30,348 nucleotides of DNA from an uncultured Candidatus Saccharibacteria bacterium (GTDB lineage: Bacteria > Patescibacteriota > Minisyncoccia > 2-02-FULL-40-12 > IGHO2-01-FULL-4-A): contig CAYUQA010000085.1 of NCBI GenBank assembly GCA_964446135.1, positions 1 through 30,348 on the forward strand, in the 5' to 3' direction. Numbering within the stretch: the stretch's first letter is position 1; every line of letters begins with the position of its first letter. The notes beneath the pieces are model-generated. The model was not told where the DNA came from. It saw nothing but the letters and a program-made list of their open reading frames with translations, and did no database searches. The translations under genes and the position numbers were made by a program. This document shows, piece by piece, positions 25-26,822 of the stretch.

Positions 25-97
25 GCGCCCGTAGCTCAATCGGAAGAGCGACTGCCTTCGAAGCAGTAGGTTGTAGGTTCGAGCCCTGCCGGGCGCG
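25..97 (+). tRNA. tRNA-Arg, anticodon TCG; CCA not encoded (followed by CA)
   Basis: Cloverleaf: acceptor GCGCCCG 25-31/CGGGCGC 90-96, D-stem GCTC/GAGC with A20 Arg identity base, anticodon stem ACTGC/GCAGT around CT-TCG-AA, T-loop TTCGAGC. Confidence 0.96.
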
Positions 98-99
98 CA
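83..99 (+). repeat. 17-bp direct repeat copy 1 (tRNA-Arg 3' end, GCCCTGCCGGGCGCGCA)
   Basis: Identical to 198-214; flanking bases differ on both sides. Confidence 0.95.
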
Positions 100-214
100 G
101 TTTGTAGAATATGTCACGAATGTGACATATGACAGGCGAGAACGGTTCGATGACTGAGCGCGAGCGAAGAAATACCAAAGGCCAGCAGGCCGTGGTGGCC
201 CTGCCGGGCGCGCA
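100..214. mobile_element. 115-bp tRNA-anchored mini-element or island scar ending in a duplicate of the tRNA 3' end
   Basis: Bounded by 17-bp direct repeats; contains 9-bp perfect hairpin ATATGTCAC-GAAT-GTGACATAT (109-130), GGTTCGA T-loop copy (144-150) and an AGCA-loop hairpin (174-196). Confidence 0.5.
198..214 (+). repeat. 17-bp direct repeat copy 2 of tRNA-Arg 3' end
   Basis: Exact match to 83-99. Confidence 0.95.
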
Positions 215-319: not shown

Positions 320-2923
320 ATGAATACATCAATTCGCACCAAGACAGTCGTTATAGCATCAGTACTCTTTGCAGTACTTTTTTCGGTAGTTAACTTTGCC
401 GGTGTCCGCGCTGATCTTATCGACTCCGATGGCAACGTTGCATTTAATACTAACGACACAATCGACTCCAATGGCAATGGCTACGTCTTCTTCGGTCCAA
501 ACGACTCTATTGATCCAACACCGACCGTAACATTTCGTCCAAACGACTCTATAGACCCACTTCCAACCAATCTTCCTGACGGTTGTGGTATTGTCTACGG
601 TCGCAAAATAGTTTGCGGCGCTCCATTTTCAACTCCAACTATCAGGCCGCCACATATTCCTTTTTATCCTACTGTCATTCCAACATATACACCTACCTAT
701 ACACTAGTTCCGCGTCCCACTCGCACCATCACTCCAATGCCTCCGATACAAGTCTACCCTTCAGTTGACTTAAAGGTTCGTGCCGGTAACACAAGTAATT
801 TTGTAGATGGCACTATCACGATTGATCAAAATGTGCCGTTCGAACTCTCTTGGAATTCAAACAATGTCTCAACCTGTAATGCCTCGGGTAACTGGAATGG
901 CGCCCGTGGTACTGTCGGCGCGCTAGTCATCGAAGCTGGTCTACCAGCCGGTCAATATCTATATACGCTAACCTGCACAGGTATATTTGGTAATGCAACT
1001 GATTTTGTCAGAGTAAACATCCGCGGCCCAACAATCACGCCAACACCGACACCAAATGCGCCAACCGTACAACTTCGCGCCAATGGTAGTGATCAAGATA
1101 TTACCATCAACTATAATCAAGCAGTTGCTCTATCTTGGACTTCAACCAATGCCAGCTACTGTGTCGCATCAGGCGATTGGAGCGGAACAAAATCAACACA
1201 AGGTTCACAAACAATTTCAAATAATATATTTCGAAAAGTCTTCTTATTGACCTGTTATGGTCAAGGCGGTAGTGCTTCGGATATCATTAACGTCCATGTT
1301 AATAATCAGGTAACTCCAACACCAACTCCGACGACTGCCCCCTATCTTACAGTCTCATTACAACCACAACCTCAAAGCGGCTATGTACCATTTGCTTCGA
1401 CTTTAACCGCCACGATCAACAGCAACACAAACGGCCCAATCACTTATAAATTTGATTGTACTAATGACGGTATCTACGAAGGTATCTGGACAAATATCTC
1501 AAACACGGTCTGGTCATTTACTTGTAATTACAATCAAGCCGGTACCTATACTGCCAGAGTTATCGCCGAACGCGATGGTTTAACTGCTACAGATACTCGC
1601 GGTATTACTGCATACAATCAAAATAATTATCAGAACACAATAGTCGATCTTACGACTAACCGCACTTCTGTAAATACTGGCGATAGCGCAATCCTTTCTT
1701 GGAATTCCCAAAACGCACAGTACTGCATAGCATCAAATGGCTGGTACGGTAGCAAGGCCACATCTGGTAATGAAATAGTATATAATATTTTCTCAACTAC
1801 GACATTTGTATTAACTTGCTACGGGAACAACTCTGCTTCTGATATAGTCACCATCTCTACAAACTCAAATACAAACAACGGCACAGTCACATTATCAAAA
1901 TCGGTTCGTAACGTATCGCGCTCAAGTGGTCTTGGTAGTTCAATAAACGCACAACCAAACGATACACTCGAGTTCGTAATTACGGCTACCAATAACAGCA
2001 ACTCAACGGCAAACAATGTCCGTGTCTATGATTCATTGCCATATGGCTTGAATTACGTCAATAACTCCGCGACGCAAAACGGATATTCTACAAACGGCGA
2101 GATCGTAAACAACGGTGCCTATATCAATCTGTCGCCAAACCAGACGATAACCTTCCGTTTTCAAGCAACGGTATCGGATAGTTTTATCTTAAATTACATT
2201 TCTTCAACGATCACAAATGTTGCCAATGCCTCTACAAACAATGGCTACGTTACCAGTAACACTGCGACCATCTATGTAAATAAAACCGCGGCTGTCATTG
2301 ATAATACACAAACTGGAACTTTGAGTATCCAAAAATTCGGCAAAGATATAAGTAAAGGCGACGCTACCGAACGCTCAAACTTAACCGCACAACCAAACGA
2401 TACTATTGAGTTTGTATTACGCGTTCGTACGCTGACATCAAGCACGATAGATAACGTCTACGTTCGCGATATTATGCCTGATGGTTTAATATATGTTCCG
2501 CGCTCAACCAGTATCAATGGCATCTCGGCTGCGGATGGCATTGTCGGCAGTTCTGGCCTGTTGATCGGCTCAATTGGAGCTGGCAACGAGATCATCATCC
2601 GCTTCAACGCAACAGTTAGCGCACAATCTTTCCAACGCGCCAACACATCTATCACAAATACCGCTATCGCTTTTGTTAATCAAACCAATACCAGCGTACA
2701 GTCCGGCCTTCCAATCACAATCAACAATCCACTCTACGGCGGTGTTATATCAAACCCGGGCAATATACAAACTGGTTCCGGCACTCTTTTGATAGCACTC
2801 TTGACCGGCCTTGTTATTACCACAGGTTATGTATTCTATAACCGCAGTGGTTACTCACAGAACCGCAGACTCAATAGAATTCTAAAAAATTCTAAAGCAA
2901 AGACTCAGTTCAATTTTGTCTAA
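320..2923 (+). CDS. Large secreted surface protein (867 aa): signal peptide, Pro/Thr linkers, three Cys-paired Ig-like repeats, PKD-like domain, two DUF11-like domains, C-terminal sortase-type sorting signal
   Basis: N-terminal hydrophobic leader; LSWxSxN..C.AS..W.G repeated three times; DUF11-like EFVITATN..VYDSLPYGLNYV and EFVLRVR..VRDIMPDGLIYV; C-terminal NIQTG + hydrophobic helix + basic tail; directly upstream of sortase. Confidence 0.85.
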   Translation: MNTSIRTKTVVIASVLFAVLFSVVNFAGVRADLIDSDGNVAFNTNDTIDSNGNGYVFFGPNDSIDPTPTVTFRPNDSIDPLPTNLPDGCGIVYGRKIVCGAPFSTPTIRPPHIPFYPTVIPTYTPTYTLVPRPTRTITPMPPIQVYPSVDLKVRAGNTSNFVDGTITIDQNVPFELSWNSNNVSTCNASGNWNGARGTVGALVIEAGLPAGQYLYTLTCTGIFGNATDFVRVNIRGPTITPTPTPNAPTVQLRANGSDQDITINYNQAVALSWTSTNASYCVASGDWSGTKSTQGSQTISNNIFRKVFLLTCYGQGGSASDIINVHVNNQVTPTPTPTTAPYLTVSLQPQPQSGYVPFASTLTATINSNTNGPITYKFDCTNDGIYEGIWTNISNTVWSFTCNYNQAGTYTARVIAERDGLTATDTRGITAYNQNNYQNTIVDLTTNRTSVNTGDSAILSWNSQNAQYCIASNGWYGSKATSGNEIVYNIFSTTTFVLTCYGNNSASDIVTISTNSNTNNGTVTLSKSVRNVSRSSGLGSSINAQPNDTLEFVITATNNSNSTANNVRVYDSLPYGLNYVNNSATQNGYSTNGEIVNNGAYINLSPNQTITFRFQATVSDSFILNYISSTITNVANASTNNGYVTSNTATIYVNKTAAVIDNTQTGTLSIQKFGKDISKGDATERSNLTAQPNDTIEFVLRVRTLTSSTIDNVYVRDIMPDGLIYVPRSTSINGISAADGIVGSSGLLIGSIGAGNEIIIRFNATVSAQSFQRANTSITNTAIAFVNQTNTSVQSGLPITINNPLYGGVISNPGNIQTGSGTLLIALLTGLVITTGYVFYNRSGYSQNRRLNRILKNSKAKTQFNFV

Positions 2924-2946
2924 AATATTTTAGGCAAATCAATATT

Positions 2947-3555
2947 ATGAAACTTCGAGCTACAATAATCTTCGTCGTTGCATTTGTGATTATATTTGCA
3001 ACATTGAATTTCTCTTCAATCATAAATGAGTTTAATTTCGCGACGCGCGATGTGCTCAATGCTCAAAGTATCAATGCATTTTATCTGCCGCTTTCAGCAG
3101 ATAAGAAACAGCAAGATCTTACAGAAGAAGCGACTCTAGTCATCGAAAAGCTCAACATATCGGCACCGATTATTTTCTCAAAAGCTCAAACAACAGATGC
3201 TATATATACTGATCTAAAAAAGGGTGTTGTTGTATATCCGGGCAGTGTCAAACCGGGCGAGCAAGGCTCTTCGCTGATTCTTGGACATAGTTCGAGCTAT
3301 CTGTGGGATAAAAATAAATATGGCAATATTTTTGCCCTAATAAATAAACTTCAGATCGGCGACACTTTTAGCATCCGCTATGCTGACGGTCAAACGTTCC
3401 GTTTTCAAGTTGATGAGTCTCTAATATTCAATCCATTTGATTCAGATAGTCTTGCCAAATTAAGTGCTACCGAAACCAGCAACGTCATTCTCATGAGTTG
3501 TTGGCCGACCGGTACTTCACTCAAACGCATCGGTATCAAAGGCGTACGCATATAA
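2947..3555 (+). CDS. Sortase family transpeptidase (202 aa)
   Basis: N-terminal membrane anchor, L.I.KLNI strand, catalytic His in ILGHSS, catalytic Cys in VILMSCWP (TLxTC variant), downstream Arg in KRI. Confidence 0.88.
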   Translation: MKLRATIIFVVAFVIIFATLNFSSIINEFNFATRDVLNAQSINAFYLPLSADKKQQDLTEEATLVIEKLNISAPIIFSKAQTTDAIYTDLKKGVVVYPGSVKPGEQGSSLILGHSSSYLWDKNKYGNIFALINKLQIGDTFSIRYADGQTFRFQVDESLIFNPFDSDSLAKLSATETSNVILMSCWPTGTSLKRIGIKGVRI

Positions 3556-3628: not shown

Positions 3629-3642
3629 TTTGCCATCAAATA

Positions 3643-3718
3643 CCGCCCTTAGCTCAGTTGGTAGAGCTGCTCCCTCTTAAGGAGAAGGTCGTTGGTTCGA
3701 ATCCAACAGGGCGGACCA
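3643..3718 (+). tRNA. tRNA-Lys, anticodon CTT, with encoded CCA
   Basis: Acceptor CCGCCCT/AGGGCGG, discriminator A, CCA 3716-3718; D-stem GCTC/GAGC; anticodon loop CT-CTT-AA; T-arm GTTGG-TTCGAAT-CCAAC. Confidence 0.96.
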
Positions 3719-5189
3719 TTTGAGATTTTTTACCACCAGATTCTTTATTGATGGCGTAGATATTAGATAATTTGGTGGTTCCAAATTTCTCACCGTCAAA
3801 GAACGGTTTTTCGTCAAAAATCATATTTTGGAAACGAACATTATTTGGGTGAGTCAATCTTAGCCATGTTTTAGCTGTCTCTCTTACAAAGTTAAAACAA
3901 TAATCCAGAGATTCTTCCATGTTAAACTCTTCAATATGGCTCTCCTGTAATAGTTGCCGCTTTTCGTATATTTTCTGATTAATCAAATCTTTCTGCTCAA
4001 CAAACTCCTCATCGTTATATCTGCCCGCTCTATGAAGATCAAAAATTTTTAATCTATCTTGCTCTAGATTCTCAACCTCTTTATTTATTTGAACATTCTC
4101 CTCATTAAATCTTTTGTAATTTGACTGCCAAATATCTATCATGATGGCCTTAAACATTTTCTCGTATTTTTTATTCGGAGTAATCTTGGTTAAATATTCA
4201 ACAAATAACTGTTCAAATGTTTCTTTGGGTATAAACTTTGCATTCTCGCAATTTTGACGATGGTGATGATAGTAAGGATATTTTACCCTCTTTCTTCCGG
4301 TAGAATAGCTACCGGTTATAGAGGTTCTGCAATTAGGACAGACAACTTTTCTTAAGGGGAAATTGGGATTAGCGCTTATTCTTTGTGTAGATTGAGATCT
4401 ATCTTTCTTTTTGCGCTGGCATTGATTAAATAACTCCTCACTAACTATTCCAAATGAACTTTTTATTCTCATTCCCCACACATCTATAATCCCACAATAT
4501 ATCGGATTCTTAATTATTCGCTCCATTAGTTGAGCAAAAGGTATTTTATTATTTCTAGTTCTAAATCCACGTTCACCTATGAATTTAGCCAATGCACGAT
4601 AACTATATTTGCCCTTAGCATATTCTTCGAATAAAAGTCTTATGTAAACAGAATCTTGAGGATGTGGTTCAATATTCGAACCAGAGTAAGATCTATAAAA
4701 ACCAATAGGAGCCGCCCATGTCCAAATTCCCTTCTTAAGCTGTTCCATCATGCCACTTATGCTCCTTTCTTTTCTGACGTTATTGTCTAATTCGGCAAAG
4801 ACAGAAAGCACACCCTCCATAGCCCTACCAAAAGGCGTTTCATTAATCGGCTCCGTAACTGATTTAAGCTCTGTTCCGAATTTTCTTAATATCGTCCTAA
4901 CGTTGACGTGATCATCTTGATTCCTTGCAAAACGATCTAACTTGTAAACAATAAAATAGTTAATGGGCTTTTTTTTGTTAGAACAAAGCGATATCGCTTT
5001 CATAAACTCTGGCCTGTCAGCAGTCTTAGCCGATTCTCCACGATCAACAAAAACTTTCGGATCCATAATTCCTAATTTCGTAGCATATTCACGGCATAGT
5101 CTTTCTTGCATATCTAAACTTGTTCCCTCAACCTGTTCCTTTGAAGAAACCCTACAATACAACACTCCCGTTTTTGCTGATTCGCTCAT
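3654..5189 (-). CDS. Large serine recombinase/integrase (511 aa): resolvase catalytic domain, recombinase domain, zinc ribbon, coiled coil
   Basis: LYCRVSSKEQ catalytic Ser motif, YKLDRFARN, WAAPIGFY, CPNC..YYHH..C ribbon; last 21 codons and TGA lie antisense within tRNA-Lys. Confidence 0.93.
   Translation of the reverse strand: MSESAKTGVLYCRVSSKEQVEGTSLDMQERLCREYATKLGIMDPKVFVDRGESAKTADRPEFMKAISLCSNKKKPINYFIVYKLDRFARNQDDHVNVRTILRKFGTELKSVTEPINETPFGRAMEGVLSVFAELDNNVRKERSISGMMEQLKKGIWTWAAPIGFYRSYSGSNIEPHPQDSVYIRLLFEEYAKGKYSYRALAKFIGERGFRTRNNKIPFAQLMERIIKNPIYCGIIDVWGMRIKSSFGIVSEELFNQCQRKKKDRSQSTQRISANPNFPLRKVVCPNCRTSITGSYSTGRKRVKYPYYHHHRQNCENAKFIPKETFEQLFVEYLTKITPNKKYEKMFKAIMIDIWQSNYKRFNEENVQINKEVENLEQDRLKIFDLHRAGRYNDEEFVEQKDLINQKIYEKRQLLQESHIEEFNMEESLDYCFNFVRETAKTWLRLTHPNNVRFQNMIFDEKPFFDGEKFGTTKLSNIYAINKESGGKKSQMVRPVGFEPTTFSLRGSSSTN
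3698..3716 (+). repeat. attL-like 19-bp direct repeat (CGAATCCAACAGGGCGGAC)
   Basis: Exact match to 7653-7671; runs from the T-loop to the first C of CCA. Confidence 0.93.
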
Positions 5190-5383
5190 GACTGTATTTT
5201 ATTGCTTTCCCCAAGTTTGTGCAGTATCCCAATAGGATACTTGGAACCACTTACACTATCTAGCCAATCATCAAAAATAAGCCGTCCTAACTCATAATAT
5301 TTATCGCGTATCTTAATAGCCTCATCATCAGAGATGCCATTTAATTCTGGGTCTATTTTTCTTAATTTCTCTATGTTGAGCAT
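5186..5383 (-). CDS. Small hypothetical protein (65 aa) translationally coupled to the recombinase
   Basis: Stop overlaps recombinase start (ATGA at 5186-5189); helical charged sequence. Confidence 0.7.
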   Translation of the reverse strand: MLNIEKLRKIDPELNGISDDEAIKIRDKYYELGRLIFDDWLDSVSGSKYPIGILHKLGESNKIQS

Positions 5384-5439
5384 AGGGTATCAGTCTGTAT
5401 TTATTATCTCAACCTGGGGCATTTAAAGCCCAAAGGTCC

Positions 5440-5625
5440 CTACTTTTTACTACCTTTTCTCTCTATGTCCTCTGATAGTTTTCGGTAGTAATTCTCATTC
5501 TCTAAAATTGATTTGATTGAATAAGTTTTTCCATTCGAGGGAACTATGCCGTAATAAGCTCTAACAAAAGCATCCCTTAACTCCTTATTTGGTATTTGTT
5601 CAACTAAATTTATTGTCTGGATCAT
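5440..5625 (-). CDS. Small hypothetical protein (61 aa)
   Basis: ATG start, co-oriented with island genes, AT-rich upstream spacer. Confidence 0.55.
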   Translation of the reverse strand: MIQTINLVEQIPNKELRDAFVRAYYGIVPSNGKTYSIKSILENENYYRKLSEDIERKGSKK

Positions 5626-5633
5626 ATAGTTAT

Positions 5634-5948
5634 AAATAAAAATCCGCTTAATTCGATGGGGGTACCACTTGGAATGACGACCCCCGCCGAATCAAACGGA
5701 CATTTCCCAAGTAGTTTACCGCCAAAACAGAAAAAGACCTCTCGCTAGAGGCCCTTTCTTTAAATAATCGAGAAAAAGCTCTACTAGCTCTTTCTCGCTC
5801 ACGAGGCGAAGGATTTAACCATGTTCTGTATAGGCTTAAAAATCTTCAAGCCATCAAGACGCAGTGAATTTACCGAATAACGAATCGGGGAGGATCTCAC
5901 CCCCTGATTCACCAAGCAGTTTTCTCTCTGCCTTTAGAATCTACAGTT
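5634..5948 (-). ncRNA. Candidate structured RNA or attenuator leader of the recombinase operon
   Basis: ORF-free; stem-loops at 5914-5933, 5882-5910, 5769-5797, 5736-5753 (+U-tract) and 5643-5700 (+U-tract); A-C mismatches on + become G-U pairs on -; TTGACA at 5982-5977 on - upstream. Confidence 0.4.
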
Positions 5949-5984
5949 GATTCCATTAAAGCAATTCGTGTATCTTTGTCAATC

Positions 5985-6236
5985 TTATTTGTCGATAAAT
6001 ATCATTTTTGGCACTTCGATTGTCGTCTCTATCGGCGTGACTGGTCTCCCGAACGCACGATCAAATAAAATCTGAGTTGCCTTTAAATCACCTTGCTTTG
6101 CGCGCTCTATAAGTCCAGTAACGATTAGTCCCAAAGAATTCCCAACTTGCTGAACTATATACTCTCGGAACTTCTCAGCCTGAACGCCACTAAATCCCTG
6201 TTTCCTGCCTGCATTTTCTCTATATCCACCTCTCAT
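5985..6236 (-). CDS. Hypothetical protein (83 aa) resembling phage terminase small-subunit-like/DUF5681-type proteins
   Basis: N-terminal GGYRENAGRKQG and C-terminal GDLKATQILFDRAFGRP resemble motifs remembered from such phage proteins; function not verified. Confidence 0.55.
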   Translation of the reverse strand: MRGGYRENAGRKQGFSGVQAEKFREYIVQQVGNSLGLIVTGLIERAKQGDLKATQILFDRAFGRPVTPIETTIEVPKMIFIDK

Positions 6237-6273
6237 AAAATTTGATAAGAATCAAAGATGATAATCGCAAAGA

Positions 6274-7290
6274 TTACCAAGAATTAATTTGGAAACTACC
6301 ATTGTTTATCTGCTGGGTTTGTATTCTGGTGCCACCAGGACCATAGCAGTCATAACCACCGTTAAGTGGGTGACAGATTGTTGAAGAATAGCTTCCGGAT
6401 TGATCAATATAGCCAGTATACGGTGATACGGGAAGCTTAACACCCATATCTTTGAGTTTTTGTATGGCATTGTATTCCAGCTGACTTGCCGTCCAATATC
6501 CTCCTGCTGCCTGGTATTCCTTAAGGAGTTGCTCCTTAACTTCGGCTAATTTATCGTTGTATTGTTTCCACTCGGTCTCAAATCGAGCTATTGCTGGATC
6601 TTTCTGATATTGAGCAGGTTTGTTTACGGCAGAGTTGGCAGATTGCATCTGCAACATCATTTCCCGCAAAAATTGATTAGCTTGATCCATTTGCTGACCA
6701 TAATTTTTAATCTGTTTTAATGATTGCTGTGTAGAAGCTTCAAAAGCATCTACTTGTTGGTTATATAATCCGATTGTTCTTATCTCTAGATTCTCATATT
6801 CTGCTATAACATCAGTTCTAGGATTTTCACCCTTTTTCAATCTATCAATTTCCTTATCTACCAAATCTAAAAGAGTATATTGATATCCAAGCGCAGTGGT
6901 GTTTGCATCTCTTAAGCCAGGAGCAGTGTTATTGGTTATTATTAAATTATTTTTGGTGATTTGATTTCTTAAAGCCTCAAGTCGTTGGATAACTGTTTTA
7001 TCCATTATTGGAATTGTTGTCTTTACGGTTCTCTGAACTTTTTTGACAGCAGCTCCTTTGTTCGTGTTTTTTACTTCCGAGGGTTTCGTAACATATTTTT
7101 TCTCAGATTCCTCTTTCATCATTCGTTGAAGTCCACTGGACTTATCAATTAAAGAGTCTTGTTGGACAGCTTCTTGCTTAAAAAGTTGCCAATTATCGAA
7201 CCAAGTAAAAGGATTCCACCAAGCTGCAAAAGTAACTTGCGGATAGAGTATAATTCCCAAAATCAAGCTAAATAGTATACCTTTCTTCAT
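6274..7290 (-). CDS. Secreted coiled-coil hypothetical protein (338 aa from MKKGILF) with AAWWNPFTW motif
   Basis: Signal peptide MKKGILFSLILGIILYPQVTFA; C-terminal Cys pair; start chosen at 7290 because the promoter lies at 7298-7326. Confidence 0.8.
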   Translation of the reverse strand: MKKGILFSLILGIILYPQVTFAAWWNPFTWFDNWQLFKQEAVQQDSLIDKSSGLQRMMKEESEKKYVTKPSEVKNTNKGAAVKKVQRTVKTTIPIMDKTVIQRLEALRNQITKNNLIITNNTAPGLRDANTTALGYQYTLLDLVDKEIDRLKKGENPRTDVIAEYENLEIRTIGLYNQQVDAFEASTQQSLKQIKNYGQQMDQANQFLREMMLQMQSANSAVNKPAQYQKDPAIARFETEWKQYNDKLAEVKEQLLKEYQAAGGYWTASQLEYNAIQKLKDMGVKLPVSPYTGYIDQSGSYSSTICHPLNGGYDCYGPGGTRIQTQQINNGSFQINSW

Positions 7291-7297
7291 AAAATAT

Positions 7298-7326
7298 ATT
7301 ATAACATAAAATTCTTTAGATTGCAA
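7298..7326 (-). promoter_or_regulatory. sigma70 promoter giving a leaderless mRNA for 6274-7290
   Basis: TTGCAA (7326-7321), 17 bp, TG-n-TATAAT (7303-7298); ATG lies 7 nt after the -10 box. Confidence 0.7.
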
Positions 7327-7547
7327 TTAGGGTACTTGAATCCGCTCTTCTGCGACTTTATCTCGGATTCTAATATCAGAGGGTATTATATCGCCAAGAA
7401 TAATCGCTATTTTCAAGCACTTTTCCAAAATCTCTCCATTTGTTAAGCTCTAATAATAGGTGATTCCAATTCTGTCCTATTAGGCGGACATTCTAAACAA
7501 TAAAGTCGAATTTATTTGGCTTTATTGTTTAGATATATTTTGTATCT

Positions 7548-7652
7548 TGTTGGATTCGAACGCCGGAGCGACTGTTTCGTCAGCAGACGAAACCGCGAGG
7601 CGCGGCCTGGAGACCTAGTTCCGACGGCTGGTCGGGACTAGAGTCGAAATGG
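7548..7652. repeat. tRNA T-arm mirror plus GC-rich hairpin cassette at the island right end
   Basis: 7548-7561 (TGTTGGATTCGAAC) is the exact reverse complement of tRNA-Lys 3695-3708; hairpins GTTTCGTC-AGCA-GACGAAAC (7574-7593), CCGCG-AGG-CGCGG (7593-7605), CTAGTTCCGAC-GGCTG-GTCGGGACTAG (7615-7641). Confidence 0.8.
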
Positions 7653-7671
7653 CGAATCCAACAGGGCGGAC
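7653..7671 (+). repeat. attR-like 19-bp direct repeat of tRNA-Lys 3' end
   Basis: Exact match to 3698-3716; followed by AAAC rather than CA. Confidence 0.93.
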
Positions 7672-7696
7672 AAACTATCTTTCACAAGGAGACGGT

Positions 7697-8242
7697 ATGG
7701 ACTGGACAAAATTAGAATATGAGTCACGAGATATTTTAGAAGAAACAGTAATCAGAATACAAGAGGCGATTCTTGAGGTATTTAACATGAAGGGCGACAA
7801 CCGTTGCTGGCTGGCATACTTTATTATCTACGAAGCCGCTGATATCGCTACGTTGTCATCCTCGGCCAGATTTCCAAAAGAAGATTTTGGTGATCGCTGT
7901 GATCATTTTATTGAGCACAGTCCTAACCCAGATCAAATGGTCTTATGGGAAAATGCCGAGCCATATCACACATACGATGTTTCAAAAATGAATGATGCAA
8001 AACTTCGTGCATACATCAGAAGATGCCGCAAAGTAATCGGCGTCCATTACCGTAAATTCTTAACTGGTAAATACGATTACAAAGATGACCAAAAAATTAT
8101 CGCACTTCTGCCCCAAAAAATTATCTTCGACACTAGACTACCTGATAGAGAAAAAATGAGACCAAACTGTGATCGATTTTACGAGTGCAAAGAAGCACAA
8201 CTCGATAAAAACGGCTTCACCGACTGGCACCGTTGGGAATAG
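7697..8242 (+). CDS. Hypothetical protein (181 aa from MDWTKL)
   Basis: AAGGAG Shine-Dalgarno at 7686-7691 before ATG 7697; terminator follows; no recognisable family. Confidence 0.7.
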   Translation: MDWTKLEYESRDILEETVIRIQEAILEVFNMKGDNRCWLAYFIIYEAADIATLSSSARFPKEDFGDRCDHFIEHSPNPDQMVLWENAEPYHTYDVSKMNDAKLRAYIRRCRKVIGVHYRKFLTGKYDYKDDQKIIALLPQKIIFDTRLPDREKMRPNCDRFYECKEAQLDKNGFTDWHRWE

Positions 8243-10305: not shown

Positions 10306-11025
10306 CTATTTTAGGGCGGCGTCTATGGTAGCTTTAAAACTAGCAAATGGCTGAGCACCTACCAGTTGAGTCCCATTGATAAAGAATGAAGGTGTACCAC
10401 TGACGTTTATAGAGCTGGCATAAGCTAAATCATTATCAATATGGCTAGTATATTTACCGGATTCAAAACATTGGTTGAATTGCGAGGCATTGAGCTTGAT
10501 ATTCGCCGCCCATCGTTTTAAGTCACTGGTCGTATATTGAACGGTCCCAGTTCCTTTTTTAGCCTGTTCTTGAAATATTTTATCGTGCATCTCCCAGAAC
10601 TTACCCTGTTCAGCGGCACATTCTACAGCTATCGCCGATGGTTTAGCTAGCGGGTGAAAATCTAAAGGAAAGTGTCTAAATACAAGTCGTGCTTTGCCGG
10701 TATCAATATATTCGGTTTTGACCTGGGCAAAAGCGCCTTCAAAGAAACTTCGGCAAAATGGACACTGAAAATCACTAAACTCAACAATCGTAACTTTGGC
10801 ATCTTTATTGCCAAGAATATGATCCTGATCTGTGATCTCAATCTTCACTGGTTTGGGTGGTGTATTATCTGCAATTTTAGCTAAACCACCAGCCCCGCCA
10901 CGTGTCATGAGTAGAGTTCCTGCAATAATAACCGCGGCGATCAAGATAGCGCCAGGTAGAATAAAAGGCTGAAAACCACGGGGGCTTGCGCTAGATGCTG
11001 GAGAAGTTTGTTGTATATCTTCCAT
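10306..11025 (-). CDS. Membrane-anchored DsbA-family thiol:disulfide oxidoreductase
   Basis: FSDFQCPFC active site, RHFPL, GTP cis-Pro loop, N-terminal TM helix; start MEDIQ (11025) preferred over 11094. Confidence 0.9.
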   Translation of the reverse strand: MEDIQQTSPASSASPRGFQPFILPGAILIAAVIIAGTLLMTRGGAGGLAKIADNTPPKPVKIEITDQDHILGNKDAKVTIVEFSDFQCPFCRSFFEGAFAQVKTEYIDTGKARLVFRHFPLDFHPLAKPSAIAVECAAEQGKFWEMHDKIFQEQAKKGTGTVQYTTSDLKRWAANIKLNASQFNQCFESGKYTSHIDNDLAYASSINVSGTPSFFINGTQLVGAQPFASFKATIDAALK

Positions 11026-11115
11026 AAAAATTACGATGTTGCTGATAGTTAAAAAAATATCAGAAGCATACGGATTACGTTTGGATACTAGCATATATCG
11101 ACAAGAATATACCTA

Positions 11116-11144
11116 TTGACAAGTAGTTAAATATATATTATAAT
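11116..11144 (+). promoter_or_regulatory. Perfect consensus sigma70 promoter with no downstream + strand gene
   Basis: TTGACA (11116-11121), 17 bp, TATAAT (11139-11144). Confidence 0.75.
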
Positions 11145-11150
11145 TATATA

Positions 11151-11351
11151 CATCGTGGTACTGCAACTTTCGTGACTCTCTGATGCACAATGCTCCACCT
11201 CTTTTAAGAAGTGGAGCGGTTTGATAGGCATACTATACAGCTTTTATGCTGTATAGTCTATCATTTATCAAAGGGGAAAATATCCGGTTTCCGGATATAA
11301 CCGAAGATGTGGTCCTCATAAAAAAGCCGAGCGTAAATGCCCGGCTTTTTT
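11151..11351 (+). ncRNA. Candidate ~200-nt structured small RNA
   Basis: Lies between the perfect promoter and the terminator at 11315-11356; hairpins 11192-11217, 11222-11263, 11280-11298; possible closing ACATC/GATGT. Confidence 0.5.
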
Positions 11352-11356
11352 ATGAG
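11315..11356. terminator. Bidirectional terminator at the tig stop
   Basis: CTCATAAAAAAGCCG ... CGGCTTTTTTATGAG, 15-bp perfect stem. Confidence 0.85.
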
Positions 11357-12657
11357 ACAATCTCCTCGACCGCTCTTGCGCCCTGTTCTAGAAGTGAGAA
11401 CACCTTGTCTGTGGTTAGTGTCTCTCTTATCTGACTTTTCATTCTCTCTATGGTCTCCGGTTTTAACTGCTCGGGATTCTGGCCAAGGCGGACCATTGAA
11501 TACTGCAACAGAGCCTGAAGCTCTACGTCGACCTCATCTTCAGAGACCGAGATATTCTCCGCGCGAGCAATCGCTCGCAACACTAGATTTGCTTTTACTT
11601 GTGATTCGGCCTGCTTGCACCATTCTTTTCTAAGCTCCTCTTCTGTTTTTTTAATATGCACCAGATATAAAGCCAGTTCGAGACCATTTCGATGAAGCTC
11701 TTCATCGAAAGAGGCGATCATTGAATCCAGTCGCTCGTTGATAAGCGTCTCCGGGATATCGGCTTCACTTTTTTGGGCGACTTGCTCCATTAGGTTTAGT
11801 CTTATTTTTTCTTTTGCCTTATCATTTTTTTCTTTAAATAAACCGTCACGAATACTTGCCCTTAAATCATCGGCTGTCTGAAAAGAGCCAAGAGAAGCGA
11901 CAAAAGAATCGTTGAGTTCGGGAGTCTCACGATCCTCTATTTTTTTTACTGTAACTTCGGCATGTAGCGTCTTGCCAGCGATAGTTTGTTGGTAATAATC
12001 AGCTGGTATTTCAAGATTGAATTCTTTAAACTCGCTCTTCTTCATGCCGACAATATGATCCTCAAAGCCAACAACAAATTTGTTGTCACCTATAGTTATG
12101 GGGTGATTTTCACTTTTGCCGCCGTCAATAACGGCATCGCCTTCTTTAATAATAAAATCGACTTCAACACGATCACCATTCTGGGCTGGGCGGTCAACTT
12201 CATTAAAAACTGTGCGTGATTTTGTAATATCTTGGACCACCTTATCTACCTCTTCGTCGCTGACAGATATAGTCTCTGGTTTAAATTTAAGATCAACATA
12301 ACTTCCGAGTTTTATATTAGGGAACAGAGATAGTAAGACTTCGAATTTTAAAAGGTCTTTGGAATTTTCAAGAACCTTTAGATCACTATAGGAGATAAAA
12401 TCCAACTTTTCTTTTTTGACTACGTTCGAAAGACTATTCTCAATTGCCATATTGAGGGCCTCTTGTCTGATATGGTCTTCGCCAACTTTTTTACGAAATA
12501 TATCCGGCGGCGTTTTGCCGGGACGAAATCCCTCTAGTGTGCTTTGCTTTATCATCGCCTGCTCGGTAGCCTCTATAAATCCGGCCAAATCGGAACTATC
12601 TAAATCAATAGTTAGTTTAACTCGACTGTCCTTTAGCTCTGTAACCTTATGTTCCAT
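11350..12657 (-). CDS. tig: Trigger factor (435 aa)
   Basis: Ribosome-binding GFRPGKTP signature, FKBP domain (GDRVEVDF, GFEDHIVGMK), C-terminal chaperone domain. Confidence 0.95.
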   Translation of the reverse strand: MEHKVTELKDSRVKLTIDLDSSDLAGFIEATEQAMIKQSTLEGFRPGKTPPDIFRKKVGEDHIRQEALNMAIENSLSNVVKKEKLDFISYSDLKVLENSKDLLKFEVLLSLFPNIKLGSYVDLKFKPETISVSDEEVDKVVQDITKSRTVFNEVDRPAQNGDRVEVDFIIKEGDAVIDGGKSENHPITIGDNKFVVGFEDHIVGMKKSEFKEFNLEIPADYYQQTIAGKTLHAEVTVKKIEDRETPELNDSFVASLGSFQTADDLRASIRDGLFKEKNDKAKEKIRLNLMEQVAQKSEADIPETLINERLDSMIASFDEELHRNGLELALYLVHIKKTEEELRKEWCKQAESQVKANLVLRAIARAENISVSEDEVDVELQALLQYSMVRLGQNPEQLKPETIERMKSQIRETLTTDKVFSLLEQGARAVEEIVS

Positions 12658-12658
12658 A

Positions 12659-13999
12659 TTATTCTTCTGTTTTTATATCTGGACTTTCTCCTTCTGATAT
12701 CGAGACAGGAGTCTCCAGATCAACTTCGCTTTCTTTTGCGGTCTTCGTTGATTCTGCACTTTCAGATTCAACTGAAGTCTCGCCTTCAGCTACCACCTCT
12801 GCTTCTGCGGATTTTATTTCGCCCTGAGGAGCGCGAACATCTATCTTCCAGCCAGTTAATTTGGCCGCCAGACGAACGTTCTGGCCGCTTTTTCCAATAG
12901 CAAGTGAGAATTGATCATCAGCAACTTCGACTAATGCGTGGTGGTGTGCTTCGTCTAAAATTTTGACATTTAAAATCTTCGCCGGAGAAAGTGCTTGCGC
13001 GATAAAACGTTCTGTGTCCTCACTCCATTCAACAATATCTATCTTCTCACCACTAAGCTCGTTAATAACAGTTTGGACACGAACACCTTTCTGGCCAACC
13101 AAAGAGCCGATGGGATCAACGCCGCTCTCATGGGAGAGTACGGCGATCTTTGAACGAGACCCGGCTTCGCGAGCAATCGTACGAATTTCTACAGTGCCAG
13201 CTTCAATCTCCGGCACCTCAAAGCGGAATAGTTGCAAAACCAAATCTGGATGAGAGCGACTTAGTAGAATAACTGGCCCCCTGTTTGTCTCATCAACTCG
13301 CAATATTAAAAAACGCAAACGTTGACCGATACGATAACGATCATTCGGTAATTGCTCTATGGGCAAGAGTAGTCCGGTAGTGCGTCCGATATCGACATAA
13401 ACCATGCGACCTTCGATGCGCTGAACCAAACCAGAGATAATCGATCCCTCCTTGTTTTTAAATTCAGCATACACGACTTCTCGTTCAACCTCTCTAAGAC
13501 GTTGTATCACCACCTGCTTTGCTGTTTGCGCGGCGATACGACCAAAATCTGTTTTGGTTTCAAGAGGAAAGGTAACTTCCTCACCGACATTAATATTAGC
13601 ATTTATGCCACGAGCATCATCTATTGTAATATATTTTTCGGGATTAAAACGCACTCGAGCATCTTCTGGGCTTTGTTCTTCTGATTCTAAAACCTGCCTA
13701 TCTGGACCTTGGCGATTAGATCTATCTTCATATTCTTCTTTTACGCCTGCATCTGGTACTGGACCAACGACATACCCCTCTTCGTCGAACCCCTCAACCA
13801 CAAATTTGACCTGCCATATAGTAAACTCGCCCGTAGTTCGATCAAGATTAGCTCGAATGACCTGGCCTTTCTCGCCATAGTCTTTTTTATAAGCAGCCGA
13901 AACAGCCGCTTCTATCGTCTCAACTATCTTATCTTCGGGAATCCCTTTTTCTTCGGCAATCTGCTGAATCGCTGAAATAAATTGTTTGGTATCAAGCAT
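12659..13999 (-). CDS. nusA: Transcription termination/antitermination factor NusA (446 aa)
   Basis: FGRIAAQTAKQV, S1 domain, IAREAGSRSKIAV, DPIGSLVGQKGVRVQ, AIGKSGQNVRLAAKLTGWKID. Confidence 0.97.
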   Translation of the reverse strand: MLDTKQFISAIQQIAEEKGIPEDKIVETIEAAVSAAYKKDYGEKGQVIRANLDRTTGEFTIWQVKFVVEGFDEEGYVVGPVPDAGVKEEYEDRSNRQGPDRQVLESEEQSPEDARVRFNPEKYITIDDARGINANINVGEEVTFPLETKTDFGRIAAQTAKQVVIQRLREVEREVVYAEFKNKEGSIISGLVQRIEGRMVYVDIGRTTGLLLPIEQLPNDRYRIGQRLRFLILRVDETNRGPVILLSRSHPDLVLQLFRFEVPEIEAGTVEIRTIAREAGSRSKIAVLSHESGVDPIGSLVGQKGVRVQTVINELSGEKIDIVEWSEDTERFIAQALSPAKILNVKILDEAHHHALVEVADDQFSLAIGKSGQNVRLAAKLTGWKIDVRAPQGEIKSAEAEVVAEGETSVESESAESTKTAKESEVDLETPVSISEGESPDIKTEE

Positions 14000-23430: not shown

Positions 23431-24519
23431 TTATGAACGTAATGGCATTATGATGTAGATAAAATTCTTATCTGAGTCATTTTTAAGTACTAGTGGATTA
23501 CCCTCTCCTGTATATTCTAATATAACATTATCACTACGTATCGATTTAAGTCCATCCAATAGATATCTGTAATTCATAGAGACTGCAAATGGTTCATAAG
23601 AATCTTGTGTTAATATTGCCGCATTTAATTCTCCGCGATCAGTATTTTGTGAAAATATCTCAAGACGATCTTCTATTAAACGTAAAGTTATATCGGATAT
23701 TGTTGAAGAAAAAATACTCGCCAACCGTACTGTTTTTTCAAATTCTTGCCGTGGAATTTTTAATGTAGCTATAGAGTTGTTAGGAATAATCCTTTTATAA
23801 TCAGGATAACGTCCGTCAATAAGACGAGAGACAAATTGAAAATTCTGATTTGATAAAAAGAATTGATTTTCAGATAATTCAAATTCAATATCTTCATCAA
23901 GACTATCAATAATACGAATAATCTCGATCGCTGTTGTCCGAGGAATAATAAATTGCTTTGTTATCCCTAAATCACAAGCAAGCTCTTGTTCAGCAAGACG
24001 AAAACTATCAGTGGCGGCAAAAATAATTTTATTTTCATGTAATTGTAAAAAAATTCCGCTTAATTCAGGACGTAATTCAGATAGTGATGCCGAATCCAGA
24101 ACTGATGATAGACCCTGTTTTAATACTCCGCGATTTATGGATATCGGTTCAACTGTTTTATTTGAAGGGATAATCGGGAATTCATGACTATCCATTCCTA
24201 ATAATTTCGTAGCTATTTTTTCTGTTTGTATCTGAAGTGTATTTTTTACGGCAGTTAGTGTGATTTTTTCGTCATGGATATTTTGAATAAATTCAGAAAA
24301 TAGTCTTGCCGGCACAACAAGTTCCCCTTCGGCTTCAATCTTTGCACCAATCCAATAATGCATTCCTATCTCCAGATTTGTGGCAGAGAGTCTAAGACGT
24401 CCTTGATCTGTCTTTAAAAGAATCCCATTTAAAATTGGTAGACTGTTATTCTTTGCGGCAACATGCTCCACGACCCGAACTGCATTTAGGAGCCTCTGAT
24501 GATTAATAATTATATTCAT
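23431..24519 (-). CDS. dnaN: DNA polymerase III beta sliding clamp (362 aa)
   Basis: LPILNGIL, SATNLEIG, ATDSFRLA, SRLIDGRYPDY, MNYRYLLD, IMPLR. Confidence 0.97.
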   Translation of the reverse strand: MNIIINHQRLLNAVRVVEHVAAKNNSLPILNGILLKTDQGRLRLSATNLEIGMHYWIGAKIEAEGELVVPARLFSEFIQNIHDEKITLTAVKNTLQIQTEKIATKLLGMDSHEFPIIPSNKTVEPISINRGVLKQGLSSVLDSASLSELRPELSGIFLQLHENKIIFAATDSFRLAEQELACDLGITKQFIIPRTTAIEIIRIIDSLDEDIEFELSENQFFLSNQNFQFVSRLIDGRYPDYKRIIPNNSIATLKIPRQEFEKTVRLASIFSSTISDITLRLIEDRLEIFSQNTDRGELNAAILTQDSYEPFAVSMNYRYLLDGLKSIRSDNVILEYTGEGNPLVLKNDSDKNFIYIIMPLRS

Positions 24520-24728
24520 ATGTTATTACTACTATTATAGGTGTGATTATGGGGATAAGTTATTATTTGTCTATATGTATCAACCGATTATGTTAGATTT
24601 TACGTGTGTGTAACTCGGGGATAATTTTGGATAACTATGTGTATAATTTGGAGTGTTTATAAATCGATTACTTATACTCAAGTTTATGCAAAAGTTTTGG
24701 CCATACTATCGACATAGTTATAAACAGG
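24520..24728. other. Replication origin oriC (dnaA-dnaN intergenic)
   Basis: About ten DnaA-box-like 9-mers (24550, 24605, 24616, 24626, 24638, 24654 on -; 24672, 24684, 24706, 24718 on +) and an AT-rich trinucleotide run at 24522-24540. Confidence 0.85.
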
Positions 24729-26099: not shown

Positions 26100-26147
26100 A
26101 ATGGGAAAAAAAGATGTTGCCGAAAAAATCGTTCAACAGTCTCGTTA

Positions 26148-26261
26148 CTATACACACTTTCAAATTAAAAAGTAAAATTTATAATTTATTTTTTAATCTA
26201 TGGCCATAATATAGCCAAATCATTTTTTAAAAGAGTTGATAAGATGTGTATAACTGGATAA
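26148..26261. promoter_or_regulatory. DnaA boxes in the dnaA-rpmH intergenic region
   Basis: CTATACACA 26148-26156 (+), TTATACACA on - at 26245-26253, weaker TTATCAACT and TTATCCAGT flanking it. Confidence 0.6.
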
Positions 26262-26274
26262 AGAATAACAAGTA

Positions 26275-26303
26275 TTGACTAATCTTATTTTTTTTGTTAT
26301 CAC
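26275..26303 (+). promoter_or_regulatory. Likely rpmH-rnpA-yidD-yidC promoter
   Basis: TTGACT (26275-26280), 17 bp, TG-T-TATCAC (imperfect -10). Confidence 0.45.
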
Positions 26304-26341
26304 TAATATGTAGTAGTAATACTTTTTAGCACATATTTACT

Positions 26342-26479
26342 ATGAAAATCACACTCTATAGACCAAAGAAAAAGAAGCGAAAAAAGAAGCATGGTTTTTT
26401 GAAGCGGGCAGAATCCAAAAACGGCAAAAAAGTTCTTGCGCGTCGTCGGGCAAAAGGCAGAAAGAAATTAACCGTTTAA
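26342..26479 (+). CDS. rpmH: 50S ribosomal protein L34 (45 aa), below ORF-track cutoff
   Basis: [45 protein letters not shown]; conserved position before rnpA. Confidence 0.97.
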
Positions 26480-26485
26480 AGATTA

Positions 26486-26812: not shown

Positions 26813-26822
26813 TATTTATTTA

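Follow-up and report, generated by a model that had tools for sequence, protein, structure and literature searches.

Here, we identify a stretch of ~3.8 kb (~3717-7489), apparently inserted in the tRNA-Lys gene of a Patescibacteria (CPR) bacterium, as very probably an integrative element of a Patescibacteria clade of large serine recombinases (LSRs) that inserts at tRNA 3' ends, with an exact 19-bp repeat at the locus assigned to the host side. The entire analysis was performed in silico on a window comprising the whole 30,348-nt stretch of contig CAYUQA010000085.1 (assembly GCA_964446135.1, forward strand) and on a family set of 85 loci with LSR homologs. We document the anatomy of the island, its horizontal transfer and, within the family, a shared junction structure, an in-frame integrase tail and a single free form that is circular. 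tRNA genes are held to be the territory of tyrosine integrases. The clade described here indicates that serine integrases, too, have colonized tRNA 3' ends, and these enzymes apparently form a large group that was undescribed before; the largest LSR survey analyzed only protein-coding targets and leaves tRNA unmentioned.

The earlier note on this DNA had proposed that a large serine recombinase drives a tRNA island here, and both the tRNA gene and the LSR were verified. The tRNA-Lys(CTT) gene (3643-3718, plus strand) is intact and encodes its CCA (ARAGORN; Rfam tRNA, 67.6 bits); as mapped from the junctions, it is predicted to be host-derived up to C74 (3716) and element-derived from C75-A76 onward. 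The GC content is ~0.35 in the island versus 0.40 to 0.45 in the flanks, and the best named matches of RuvB are from Yanofskybacteria, Paceibacterota and Minisyncoccia. The LSR in its integrated form has 511 aa (3654-5189, minus strand; Pfam, PHROG, alignment and an AF2 model of a homolog) and carries Resolvase, Recombinase and Zn_ribbon_recom domains (Pfam). Its catalytic domain (PF00239, E 7.5e-30) spans residues 9-155, and R13 and S15 (within YCRVSS), the latter in keeping with a nucleophilic serine, are invariant among 22-31 homologs. PF07508 is matched with an E value of 3.5e-10, while PF13408 reaches 23.9 bits, slightly below the cut-off of 25.3, with the cysteines conserved in the alignment. 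The protein was assigned to PHROG 95 integrase. The AF2 model of the homolog P0022 has paired long helices at 342-419 (the coiled-coil insert of the zinc ribbon), aligns over its full length with the SPbeta, Bxb1 and PhiC31 integrases (E 5e-20 to 1e-14), and also matches the Listeria innocua (LI) integrase. Judged by these matches, the LSR has the integrase-type architecture of a resolvase-type catalytic domain, a recombinase domain and a zinc ribbon with coiled-coil insert.

Several observations place this LSR in a family associated with tRNA genes. The stop codon of the integrase is overlapped by an antisense tRNA gene in 54 of the 85 loci (43 tRNA-Glu, 7 tRNA-Lys, 3 tRNA-Ala and 1 tRNA-Arg), and a further three loci are cut off inside a T-loop. 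Among the best 120 database protein homologs, 94 likewise bear this tRNA-antisense signature where the integrase ends, and thousands of homologs from this clade occur in Patescibacteria. These counts supply the survey of CPR serine recombinases for tRNA adjacency that the earlier note had called for, and they uphold its suggestion of a tRNA-targeting serine-integrase class in CPR. Read in antisense, ACCA and the T-loop translate to ...KSxLVxPxG[FILV]EP, with which the integrase C-termini close; in the window, the final 18 residues of the 511-aa LSR, PVGFEPTTFSLRGSSSTN, are the antisense reading of the tRNA. Synteny links the island to the tRNA-Glu islands of loci L097 and L124. An uninterrupted attP is found in 15 of the 85 loci (attP-form loci), some of which represent junctions within a tandem array and not free elements. 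The element of loci L144 and L145, from two samples, is a circle of 6,512 bp with an intact attP, as the two sequences are 100% identical but circularly permuted, and another attP-form contig (L094) encodes a conjugative coupling protein (T4CP) and a relaxase.

The junctions were resolved by comparison within the family. At the left end, the B arm of attL (3694-3716, plus strand) contains the T-loop GGTTCGAAT at 3694-3702, 23 nt from C74, and the P' arm (3717-3760, plus strand), which is also the antisense 3' coding end of the integrase gene, bears the family-conserved CA-N5-GATTTTTT (consensus of 18 loci). At the right end, comparison with 84 related loci placed attR at 7462-7490. Its P arm, GATTCCAATTCTGTCCTATTAGGCGGAC (7462-7489, plus strand), carries the family motif and marks the true right end of the island, with A7490 as the first host base. 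DNA homology between the window and the locus of its nearest relative, L082, covers 3642-5383 and 7368-7490, ending exactly at 7490, directly before a terminator-like hairpin; in 19 loci, the distal P-arm motif is found with the end exactly at C74. The sole identity between attL and attR is GGCGGAC (3710-3716). Thus, the long 19-bp core that had been proposed reduces to 7 bp here and, at every attR that was mapped, to no fewer than 6 bp (tRNA positions 69-74), which is ordinary for serine integrases, and attB, attP and the empty site belong at 3716/7489 and not at the 19-bp repeat.

The spacing of the conserved motifs is asymmetric. Among 18 non-redundant P arms, the distance between GGTTCCAAT and A73-C74 is 28 nt, while the tRNA T-loop (GGTTCGAAT or GGTTCGAtT) lies 23 nt from C74, i.e., shifted by 5 bp relative to the P arm. 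In characterized LSRs, the motif recognized by the zinc ribbon domain (ZD motif) is 5 bp closer to the center in attB than in attP (PMC3783163). With its short core and 5-bp motif shift, the island appears to follow this rule, and GGTTCCAAT and the T-loop may serve as ZD motifs; conservation of GGTTCCAAT could partly stem from coding for N-W-N instead of from DNA recognition. The crossover can probably be bracketed within tRNA positions 69-74. Across all mapped loci, no dinucleotide other than A73-C74 is both invariant and non-palindromic, while the geometry of the LI integrase would put the crossover at 70/71, which reads CG and is palindromic in the tRNA-Lys of the window. Two features are unusual among characterized LSR sites: the motif does not recur in inverted orientation in the P' arm, and B' lacks conservation. 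In each element, the attP arm is further matched to the acceptor stem of the tRNA in which that element sits. Accordingly, the idea of universal tRNA sites holds in part: the conserved T-loop provides one element of recognition, but the match to the acceptor stem ties each attP to its own tRNA.

The direct repeat CGAATCCAACAGGGCGGAC (19 bp, exact; 3698-3716 and 7653-7671) starts in the T-loop, as the earlier note had reported and as we confirmed at both positions, and two occurrences of an exact 19-mer in a 30-kb window are far above chance. The repeat also brackets all five ORFs, which are co-oriented on the minus strand in agreement with the ORF list, and beyond the island of L082, too, the tRNA-Lys 3' end recurs, over 11 bp. 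These features would suit the original proposal, in which attL and attR have the 19-bp copies as their cores, the island spans 3698-7671, and the serine integrase works with an unusually long identity block. We consider this very unlikely, because the P arm shared by the family is situated 165 nt inward of the second copy and the homology between the window and L082 stops at 7490, because LSR recombination does not duplicate the B arm, and because, were excision to take place at the 19-bp copies, the integrase would acquire VRPVGFAISTLVPTSRRN* as its tail, without the conserved motif, whereas excision at 7489 restores this motif. The second copy (7653-7671), 164-182 nt past the island end at 7489/7490, is the 3' end of a structured "B-type" element (7545-7671, plus strand; fold −68.5 kcal/mol, z −5.3; repeats D12 and I23), which lies on the host side, behind the native terminator-like hairpin of the tRNA. 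The element comprises an antisense T-arm copy (7548-7561), a conserved hairpin (7574-7593) and a second hairpin (7614-7641); it had no Rfam covariance match at E ≤ 5 and no ARAGORN tmRNA. It has relatives in other contigs, and its homolog at the tRNA-Leu gene of L082 shows compensatory changes. An internal control is tRNA-Arg(TCG) (25-98), which together with an analogous B-type element occupies 25-214 (plus strand): a 17-bp copy of its 3' end (83-99 and 198-214) lies 99 nt downstream, with no ORF, recombinase or island between the copies. The tRNA-Leu and tRNA-Phe genes of L082 have similar downstream 3'-end copies without a recombinase in between, and in the contig of a relative, tRNA-Lys is followed after 19 nt by the structured element while the island is absent. 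From these arrangements, the 19-bp repeat appears to be unrelated to the integrase and to end a lineage-specific structured element behind several tRNA genes of this organism. Because the second copy belongs to the host-side element, the empty site proposed earlier, i.e., the tRNA directly followed by AAACTATC, is wrong; with the boundary at 7489/7490, the predicted empty site reads ...CAGGGCGGAC|ATTCTAAAC... and is followed by the terminator. A 19-bp block from the T-loop to the 3' end is also the classic footprint of a tyrosine integrase (Williams 2002), and a tyrosine recombinase encoded elsewhere in the genome might act on the repeat in trans, with the LSR as cargo or a resolvase. This is scarcely credible, given that the LSR has a full integrase-type architecture and is associated with tRNA genes in >50 loci with a precise junction structure. 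Moreover, domain scans of the island ORFs and of 26 ORFs in the 30-kb window yielded no tyrosine recombinase (Phage_integrase domain), and no recombinase other than the LSR was detected in the window, consistent with its earlier description as the sole one.

Whether the element at 3717-7489 is still mobile bears on a further alternative, in which the island integrated via the serine integrase at 7489/3716 and has since become a fixed relic, unable to excise. In this direction point its small size and lack of transfer genes (Pfam and PHROG scans), its depth in metagenome run X1 (9.1, versus 9 to 12 for the flanks), and the failure to find an empty-site allele, a circle junction or any other excision product of the island in the assembled contigs of the two metagenome runs holding it. 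However, the integrase ORF of the window is unbroken and keeps every family-invariant residue, neither the P arm nor a 37-codon tail ORF is disrupted and both are conserved in L082 as well, two island alleles are present side by side in X1, and a related element was found as a circle. Moreover, the integrase is 82% identical between the window and L082, far above the 35% and 41% of the host trigger factor and NifS, from which we conclude that the island moves horizontally. Altogether, we regard a relic as unlikely.

Because attP lies inside the integrase ORF, integration alters the C-terminus of the integrase. In the window, the coding segment for a C-terminal helix, VRLIGQNWNHLLLELNKWRDFGKVLENSDYSWRYNTL* (7376-7489, minus strand; virtual excision and translation), is orphaned and joins the integrase reading frame only upon excision. 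After virtual excision with the junctions joined at C74, the tail ..NWNxLIxELxxWxxFG.. is in frame at 23 of 23 mapped junctions, including that of the window; the same tail is the genuine C-terminus in the 15 attP-form loci and in 13 database proteins, and forms one helix (residues 493-527) in the AF2 model. We suggest that in the free form, attP lies within the 3' coding region of the integrase gene, and that GGTTCCAAT in the P arm and GGTTCGAAT in the B arm of the tRNA would be positioned 28 and 23 nt, respectively, from the region in which strand exchange occurs, i.e., tRNA positions 69-74. Integration would keep the tRNA intact and supply the encoded CCA, displace the native intrinsic-terminator-like hairpin of tRNA-Lys (7492-7533, plus strand; inverted repeat I4), which is host DNA, by 3.8 kb, and exchange the conserved 35-aa helix for 18 tRNA-antisense residues, so that prophage-form and free-form integrases would differ. 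In attB, the tRNA half alone is conserved. Because the downstream half-site B' is not, an occupied tRNA could be hit again, and this re-hit model would account for the tandem island arrays at CPR tRNA genes elsewhere.

Any function of the tail swap can be proposed only with caution. It is possible, if on balance doubtful, that the integrase is a two-state enzyme for which the swap is a built-in switch, and that only the tRNA half of attB is recognized. In such a scheme, full-length protein with the C-terminal helix would be made only while attP is intact and would favor attP × attB recombination, while the integrated element would make only the version with the tRNA-antisense tail, which would either excise the element together with the product of the neighboring orf65 or stay inactive.

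The island LSR resembles the LSRs of phages (A118/LI, Bxb1, phiC31 and SPbeta) in domain order, short attP/attB identity and the 5-bp motif shift. It differs from these in targeting the 3' end of a tRNA gene, in having attP in the integrase ORF, in the conservation of only the tRNA half-site of attB, and in sharing at most 29% identity with any LSR of cultured phages or plasmids. With tyrosine tRNA islands (P4-like and others; sublocation classes of Williams 2002), it shares insertion at the tRNA 3' end, a tRNA rebuilt by the element, an integrase gene adjoining attL, and tandem arrays. By contrast, the enzyme family is unrelated, identity is 6-12 bp instead of 15-50 bp, the predicted crossover is near A73-C74 instead of in the anticodon loop or T-loop, and arm-type sites are not evident; the long tRNA identity at both element ends that marks tyrosine islands is absent from the island in the window. 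SSV1-type archaeal integrases are tyrosine recombinases that target tRNA genes, with attP inside the integrase gene, which is split into two halves upon integration. The island is similar in carrying attP in the integrase ORF, but the exchange is confined to the last 35 codons, with the remainder still expressed. In the mycobacteriophages BPs and Brujita, the integrase is a tyrosine recombinase and attP lies in the coding region of the repressor; here, too, the prophage product has a different C-terminus, but the remodeled gene is that of the integrase itself. CcrAB of SCCmec are large serine recombinases that act at the rlmH 3' end, with 15- to 18-bp direct repeats and two recombinase subunits; they likewise use the 3' end of a conserved housekeeping gene but differ by the protein-coding target, the two subunits and the long repeats.

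The clade described here appears to read the T-loop and acceptor stem as a single half-site, with attP embedded in its own gene. Because the integration state dictates two integrase isoforms, it offers a natural experiment on serine-integrase directionality. It could also provide factor-light integrases for a genetically intractable phylum, with targets in every genome; if only the tRNA half of attB is indeed recognized, retargeting would be possible via the 6-9 bp acceptor-stem segment of attP.

Among the other island ORFs, all on the minus strand, orf65 (5186-5383) overlaps the integrase start and is kept beside the integrase in 71 of the 85 loci (tblastn). It has no match in Pfam or PHROG and is a candidate directionality factor (RDF) or regulator. 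A small cargo or regulatory ORF, orf61 (5440-5625), is shared with the L082 island (59% identity), and orf83 (5985-6236) with the tRNA-Glu islands L097 and L124/L125 (~62% identity). A secreted protein of ~338 aa with a signal peptide (6274-7290; the ORF as listed extends to 7326) has a C-terminal part in common with tRNA-Glu islands, and a promoter-like site lies by its gene at 7326-7298.

The tRNA-targeting serine integrases that the earlier note suggested for CPR bacteria are a real and large class. In the window, the gene for a large serine recombinase (LSR) of 511 aa (5189 to 3654; domains Resolvase, Recombinase and Zn_ribbon_recom) adjoins tRNA-Lys(CTT) (3643-3718; Rfam 67.6 bits), and no second recombinase was found among the window ORFs scanned. 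Databases hold >2,900 homologs of this integrase, and the best 120 are 53-82% identical and ∼505 aa long. Upon alignment, nearly all homologs end in ...KKSxLVxPxG[FILV]EP followed by a variable tail. This ending is what a tRNA 3′ end encodes on its antisense strand, with TGGT as the reverse complement of ACCA and GFEP read from that of GGTTCGAATCC. Among 85 loci (80 fetched metagenome loci, four contigs obtained by exact protein, and the window), an antisense tRNA covers the integrase stop codon in 54 (Glu 43, Lys 7, Ala 3, Arg 1); three others are cut off inside the T-loop, 15 have another, longer C terminus, seven lack the 3′ end, and six are unclear. Similarly, 94 of the best 120 proteins have the tRNA-type tail, while 13 are long-tail and 13 are of other types. 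These counts bear out the proposed class and show tRNA adjacency for the homologs of this integrase. As a whole, the observation in the earlier note is confirmed in part and its interpretation supported in part. The nearest LSRs of cultured phages and plasmids are ≤29% identical. The structure that AF2 models for a long-tail homolog is that of a canonical LSR and can be aligned from end to end with the SPbeta, Bxb1, PhiC31, and LI (Listeria innocua) integrases (E 5e-20 to 1e-9). By every feature testable in silico, the window enzyme belongs to the integrase-type LSRs. A 65-aa ORF, orf65 (5186-5383, minus strand), overlaps the integrase start codon, and its position is kept in 71/85 loci; it is a candidate directionality factor or regulator. 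Pfam and PHROGs searches with orf65, orf61, orf83, orf350, and the 181-aa ORF downstream of the island returned nothing usable.

The tRNA-Lys island, its LSR, the exact 19-bp direct repeat (CGAATCCAACAGGGCGGAC at 3698-3716 and 7653-7671), and the five ORFs between the copies, all on the minus strand, are present as described before; however, the second 19-bp copy is not the island end. In islands in tRNA-Glu, the distal junction consists of GGTTCCAAT, 12 nt, and the final 7 nt on the 3′ side of the acceptor stem up to A73-C74, followed by unrelated host DNA. A strict search for this P arm, in which both the motif and 6 nt of tRNA identity up to C74 were required, placed it 1.9-8.5 kb past the integrase in 19 loci. 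The window P arm is at 7462-7489 (GATTCCAATTCTGTCCTATTAGGCGGAC), and its counterpart is GATTCCAATTCTGTCCTATAAGGCGGAC in L082, the locus with the nearest relative of this island, in which the integrase is 82% identical and the island likewise lies in tRNA-Lys(CTT). In blastn, the window and L082 share only two blocks, 3642-5383 (78.7%) and 7368-7490 (75.6%), and similarity stops exactly at 7490. Right after it, at 7492-7533, a 19-pair hairpin and then a T-rich tail follow on the tRNA strand, as a native tRNA terminator would be expected to look; in L082, a different hairpin is found at the same place behind the junction. Based on the P-arm motif, the end of blastn similarity, and the hairpin directly after it, we infer that the island spans 3717-7489. 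The identity between attL, the tRNA-side junction, and attR, the distal junction, is the 7-bp GGCGGAC (3710-3716 and 7483-7489), and a long 19-bp core as the att site is not borne out. The host tRNA before insertion would have read ...GGCGGAC-A-TT without CCA, the CCA coming from the element. The 7489/7490 boundary predicts the circle junction ...GATTCCAATTCTGTCCTATTAGGCGGAC|CATTTGAGATTTTTTACC... and the empty site ...GGTTCGAATCCAACAGGGCGGAC|ATTCTAAACAATAAAG..., whereas ends at the 19-bp copies would instead give ...GAAATGG[19 bp]CATTTGAG... and ...GGTT[19 bp]AAACTATC.... In the assembled contigs of X1 and X2, the two metagenome runs that contain the host, the window island yielded no empty site and no circle junction, and no skip or circle joints were found in the contigs of these runs plus one run with 6% of words; searches for further host-bearing runs and for RNA runs found none.

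Several observations place attP within the integrase gene. We joined attR to attL at C74 for every locus with a mapped P arm, and after this virtual excision, the integrase ORF stays in frame in 23/23 junctions with 6-44 extra codons (typically 14-27), which encode ..(Q/L)(V/I)GxNWNxLIxELxxWxxFG... The window integrase becomes a protein of 528 aa ending in VRLIGQNWNHLLLELNKWRDFGKVLENSDYSWRYNTL. The same tail forms the C terminus of the 15 long-tail loci and of 13 database proteins, and in the DNA of the long-tail loci, the integrase 3′ end runs on without a break through the ACCA core into GGTTCCAA, i.e., attP is intact. AF2 models this tail as one helix spanning residues 493-527. Conservation in the 12 nt beyond the motif has a 3-nt periodicity, which indicates that the tail is under selection as protein. 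Because the tail is in frame after virtual excision and recurs in the attP forms, integration swaps 35 conserved C-terminal residues for 18 tRNA-antisense ones.

Consensus sequences of the arms were built from 18 non-redundant junctions and read GgTTCCAATtCtgtcccActtGGGtcAC for the P arm, GgGTTCGAtTCcC.gTagGGtcAC for the B arm, and CAatt.aGATtTtTta... for the P′ arm. The B′ arm is not conserved across these junctions, and neither P′ nor B′ contains an inverted motif copy. The distance from the 9-bp motif to C74 is 28 nt in attP and 23 nt in the tRNA. In the LI integrase, the motif of the zinc-ribbon domain (ZD) occupies positions 16-24 in attP and is 5 bp nearer the center in attB (Rutherford et al., PMC3783163). 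By analogy, this same 5-bp offset is the strongest in silico indication that the zinc-ribbon domain recognizes the T-loop, and GGTTCCAAT and GGTTCGAAT would be the motif pair in this assignment. In every locus, the P and B arms agree throughout positions 69-74, and in hosts without an encoded CCA, divergence of the flanks sets in immediately past C74; together, these features point to crossover within tRNA positions 69-74. A73-C74 is the only dinucleotide that is invariant and non-palindromic in all cases; the LI geometry would place the crossover at 70/71, which is GT in tRNA-Glu and CG in the window tRNA-Lys. In its inner part, each P arm agrees with the acceptor stem of the tRNA that it targets (Lys, GGCGGAC; Glu, GGGTCAC; Ala, GGTCCAC), and specificity is therefore not "universal." The idea of universal tRNA sites in the earlier note is right only in part, with the conserved T-loop as one putative recognition element.

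We could not find three features described together: insertion at tRNA 3′ ends, conservation of just one attB half-site, and an attP inside the integrase ORF, through which integration swaps the C terminus. Full-text literature searches that combined serine integrases with tRNA or Patescibacteria, or that looked for attP inside the gene of a serine integrase, gave no relevant result; a large LSR survey does not mention tRNA, and surveys of streptococcal IMEs tie tRNA targets to tyrosine integrases only. Island databases may contain such cases without comment.

The second 19-bp copy belongs to a structured element. The region 7545-7671 has a three-way fold of very high stability (−68.5 kcal/mol, z −5.3), in the closing stem of which a perfect 14-nt antisense T-arm copy (7548-7561) pairs with the second 19-bp copy. 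The core of this element, including the exact 30-mer 7573-7602, is present in many other, more abundant contigs of the same metagenomes, and one 97-nt contig contains a genuine tRNA-Lys 3′ end, 19 nt, and the start of a structured element of this kind with the island absent. Moreover, the 3′ end of the window tRNA-Arg (83-99) recurs as a 17-bp copy 99 nt downstream (198-214), and L082 has such copies behind tRNA-Leu (16 bp), tRNA-Phe (14 bp), and tRNA-Lys (11 bp). In these lineage-specific B-type elements (window 25-214 and 7545-7671; L082 13460-13660, minus strand, and 12890-13040, plus strand), the copies are exact, 11-19 bp long, and 100-190 nt downstream of the tRNA, with an antisense T-arm copy and GC-rich hairpins ahead. 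The window Lys element and the L082 Leu element have GGAGCGA-hairpin-CGYGAG in common, and the hairpin shows compensatory changes at two pairs. A duplicated B arm cannot arise from LSR recombination. Together with the findings above, this makes the 19-bp repeat a pre-existing host-side feature separate from the integrase. Among 84 tRNAs across all LSR loci, only three hits were obtained, all in the window and L082, and none at tRNAs of other LSR-bearing loci. The repeat may be a fossil att scar left by an element of another kind; alternatively, it may represent a miniature mobile element, an RNA encoded in the trailer, or a secondary attB. Behind a pseudo-3′ end of this sort, L146 has a second integrase 3′ end. 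The structured element fits neither an Rfam family nor a tmRNA call, and tmRNA, permuted tmRNA, SRP RNA, Y RNA, T-box, and minus-strand tRNA were dropped as candidates for 7545-7671 because they lack ARAGORN/Rfam support and their hallmarks do not fit. A GTDB scan for a 30-mer of the structured element, a pattern 2 nt off the conserved block, gave 0 matches, and an IMG/VR scan for the conserved hairpin gave none.

The integrase family also occurs in free and arrayed forms. L144 and L145, from two samples, are 100% identical circular permutations of one 6,512-bp element with a 127-bp terminal overlap in L145. This element is a free circular form of the family; besides an HTH protein and a DUF4352 protein, it has an unbroken attP and an integrase of full length. 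At L094 11798-13943, an attP-form member lies on a 41.5-kb contig beside a TrwB-like coupling protein and a Replic_Relax protein, and some family members therefore sit on conjugative or mobilizable elements. We rejected the idea that all attP-form loci are free elements since some are joints inside tandem arrays, which occur at a single tRNA. In L151 and L090, the attP-like junction is such an internal joint, and the upstream element of each array has a second, distant LSR (28-33% identity). In L151, this LSR is at 10782-12260, and its 3′ end overlaps a tRNA (12238-12309); in L090, it is at 11232-12758, and the contig stops ∼100 nt past it, so that no tRNA is visible. These arrays imply that the tRNA-targeting habit reaches beyond the close clade. 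Two to four P-arm copies are repeated in L111 (four), L112, L115, and L146. With B′ unconserved, attL (B plus P′) would still offer a recognized half, which would allow repeated hits on an occupied tRNA and could explain the arrays.

L082 was rejected as a close relative since its host genes are just 35-41% identical. The window and L082 are far more alike in island proteins (integrase 82%, orf65 73%, orf61 59%) than in host proteins (trigger factor 35%, NifS 41%), and the island has therefore moved between divergent hosts into the same tRNA. The orf83 product and the secreted protein of the window island recur in tRNA-Glu islands of like layout (L097, L124/125). In X1, the integrase 3′ end (window 3716-3844) is represented by two alleles with depths of 3.3 and 3.2 that differ at 11/129 positions; one community thus contains two variants of the island. 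LOOT RNA (RF03000), an orphan Rfam motif counted with an HMM built from four Rfam matches, is found inside related serine-integrase islands in 22/85 loci (L085 7361-7483, L116 9183-9304, L089 9562-9666, L105 3609-3723, plus 18 others), in most cases 0.3-2.5 kb upstream of the integrase gene. The window, including its island, lacks this motif, and LOOT RNA was dropped as the identity of 7545-7671.

The remaining window genes are chromosomal housekeeping genes (dnaA, dnaN, rnpA, yidC, nusA, tig, ruvB, ruvC, tyrS, and a PBP gene). The best named relatives of RuvB are from Candidatus Yanofskybacteria, Paceibacterota, and Minisyncoccia, and the CPR/Patescibacteria assignment therefore holds. Exact-protein look-ups returned no record for the integrase or the 181-aa downstream protein and only a 1.5-kb contig (from ERR3478687) for the sortase. 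The best match in a NifS-based synteny search in GTDB was 42% identical, leaving no close relative and no usable synteny. The mechanical start of the downstream ORF (7649-8242) falls within the structured element at 7649; the true start of the 181-aa ORF is likely the ATG at 7697, which has AAGGAG ahead of it. Its product has no family match, and a homolog is absent from all fetched loci. The genes dnaN, dnaA, rnpA, yidC, and jag (23431-29662) are the usual surroundings of a chromosomal replication origin, placing the island ∼20 kb from the probable oriC. Immediately upstream of tRNA-Lys, 320-3555 encodes a surface protein of 867 aa that has DUF11 repeats and a membrane anchor at its C terminus, and then the sortase. 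In L082, tRNA-Arg adjoins tRNA-Lys directly, and the surface protein and sortase pair in the window thus looks like an insertion between the two tRNA genes.
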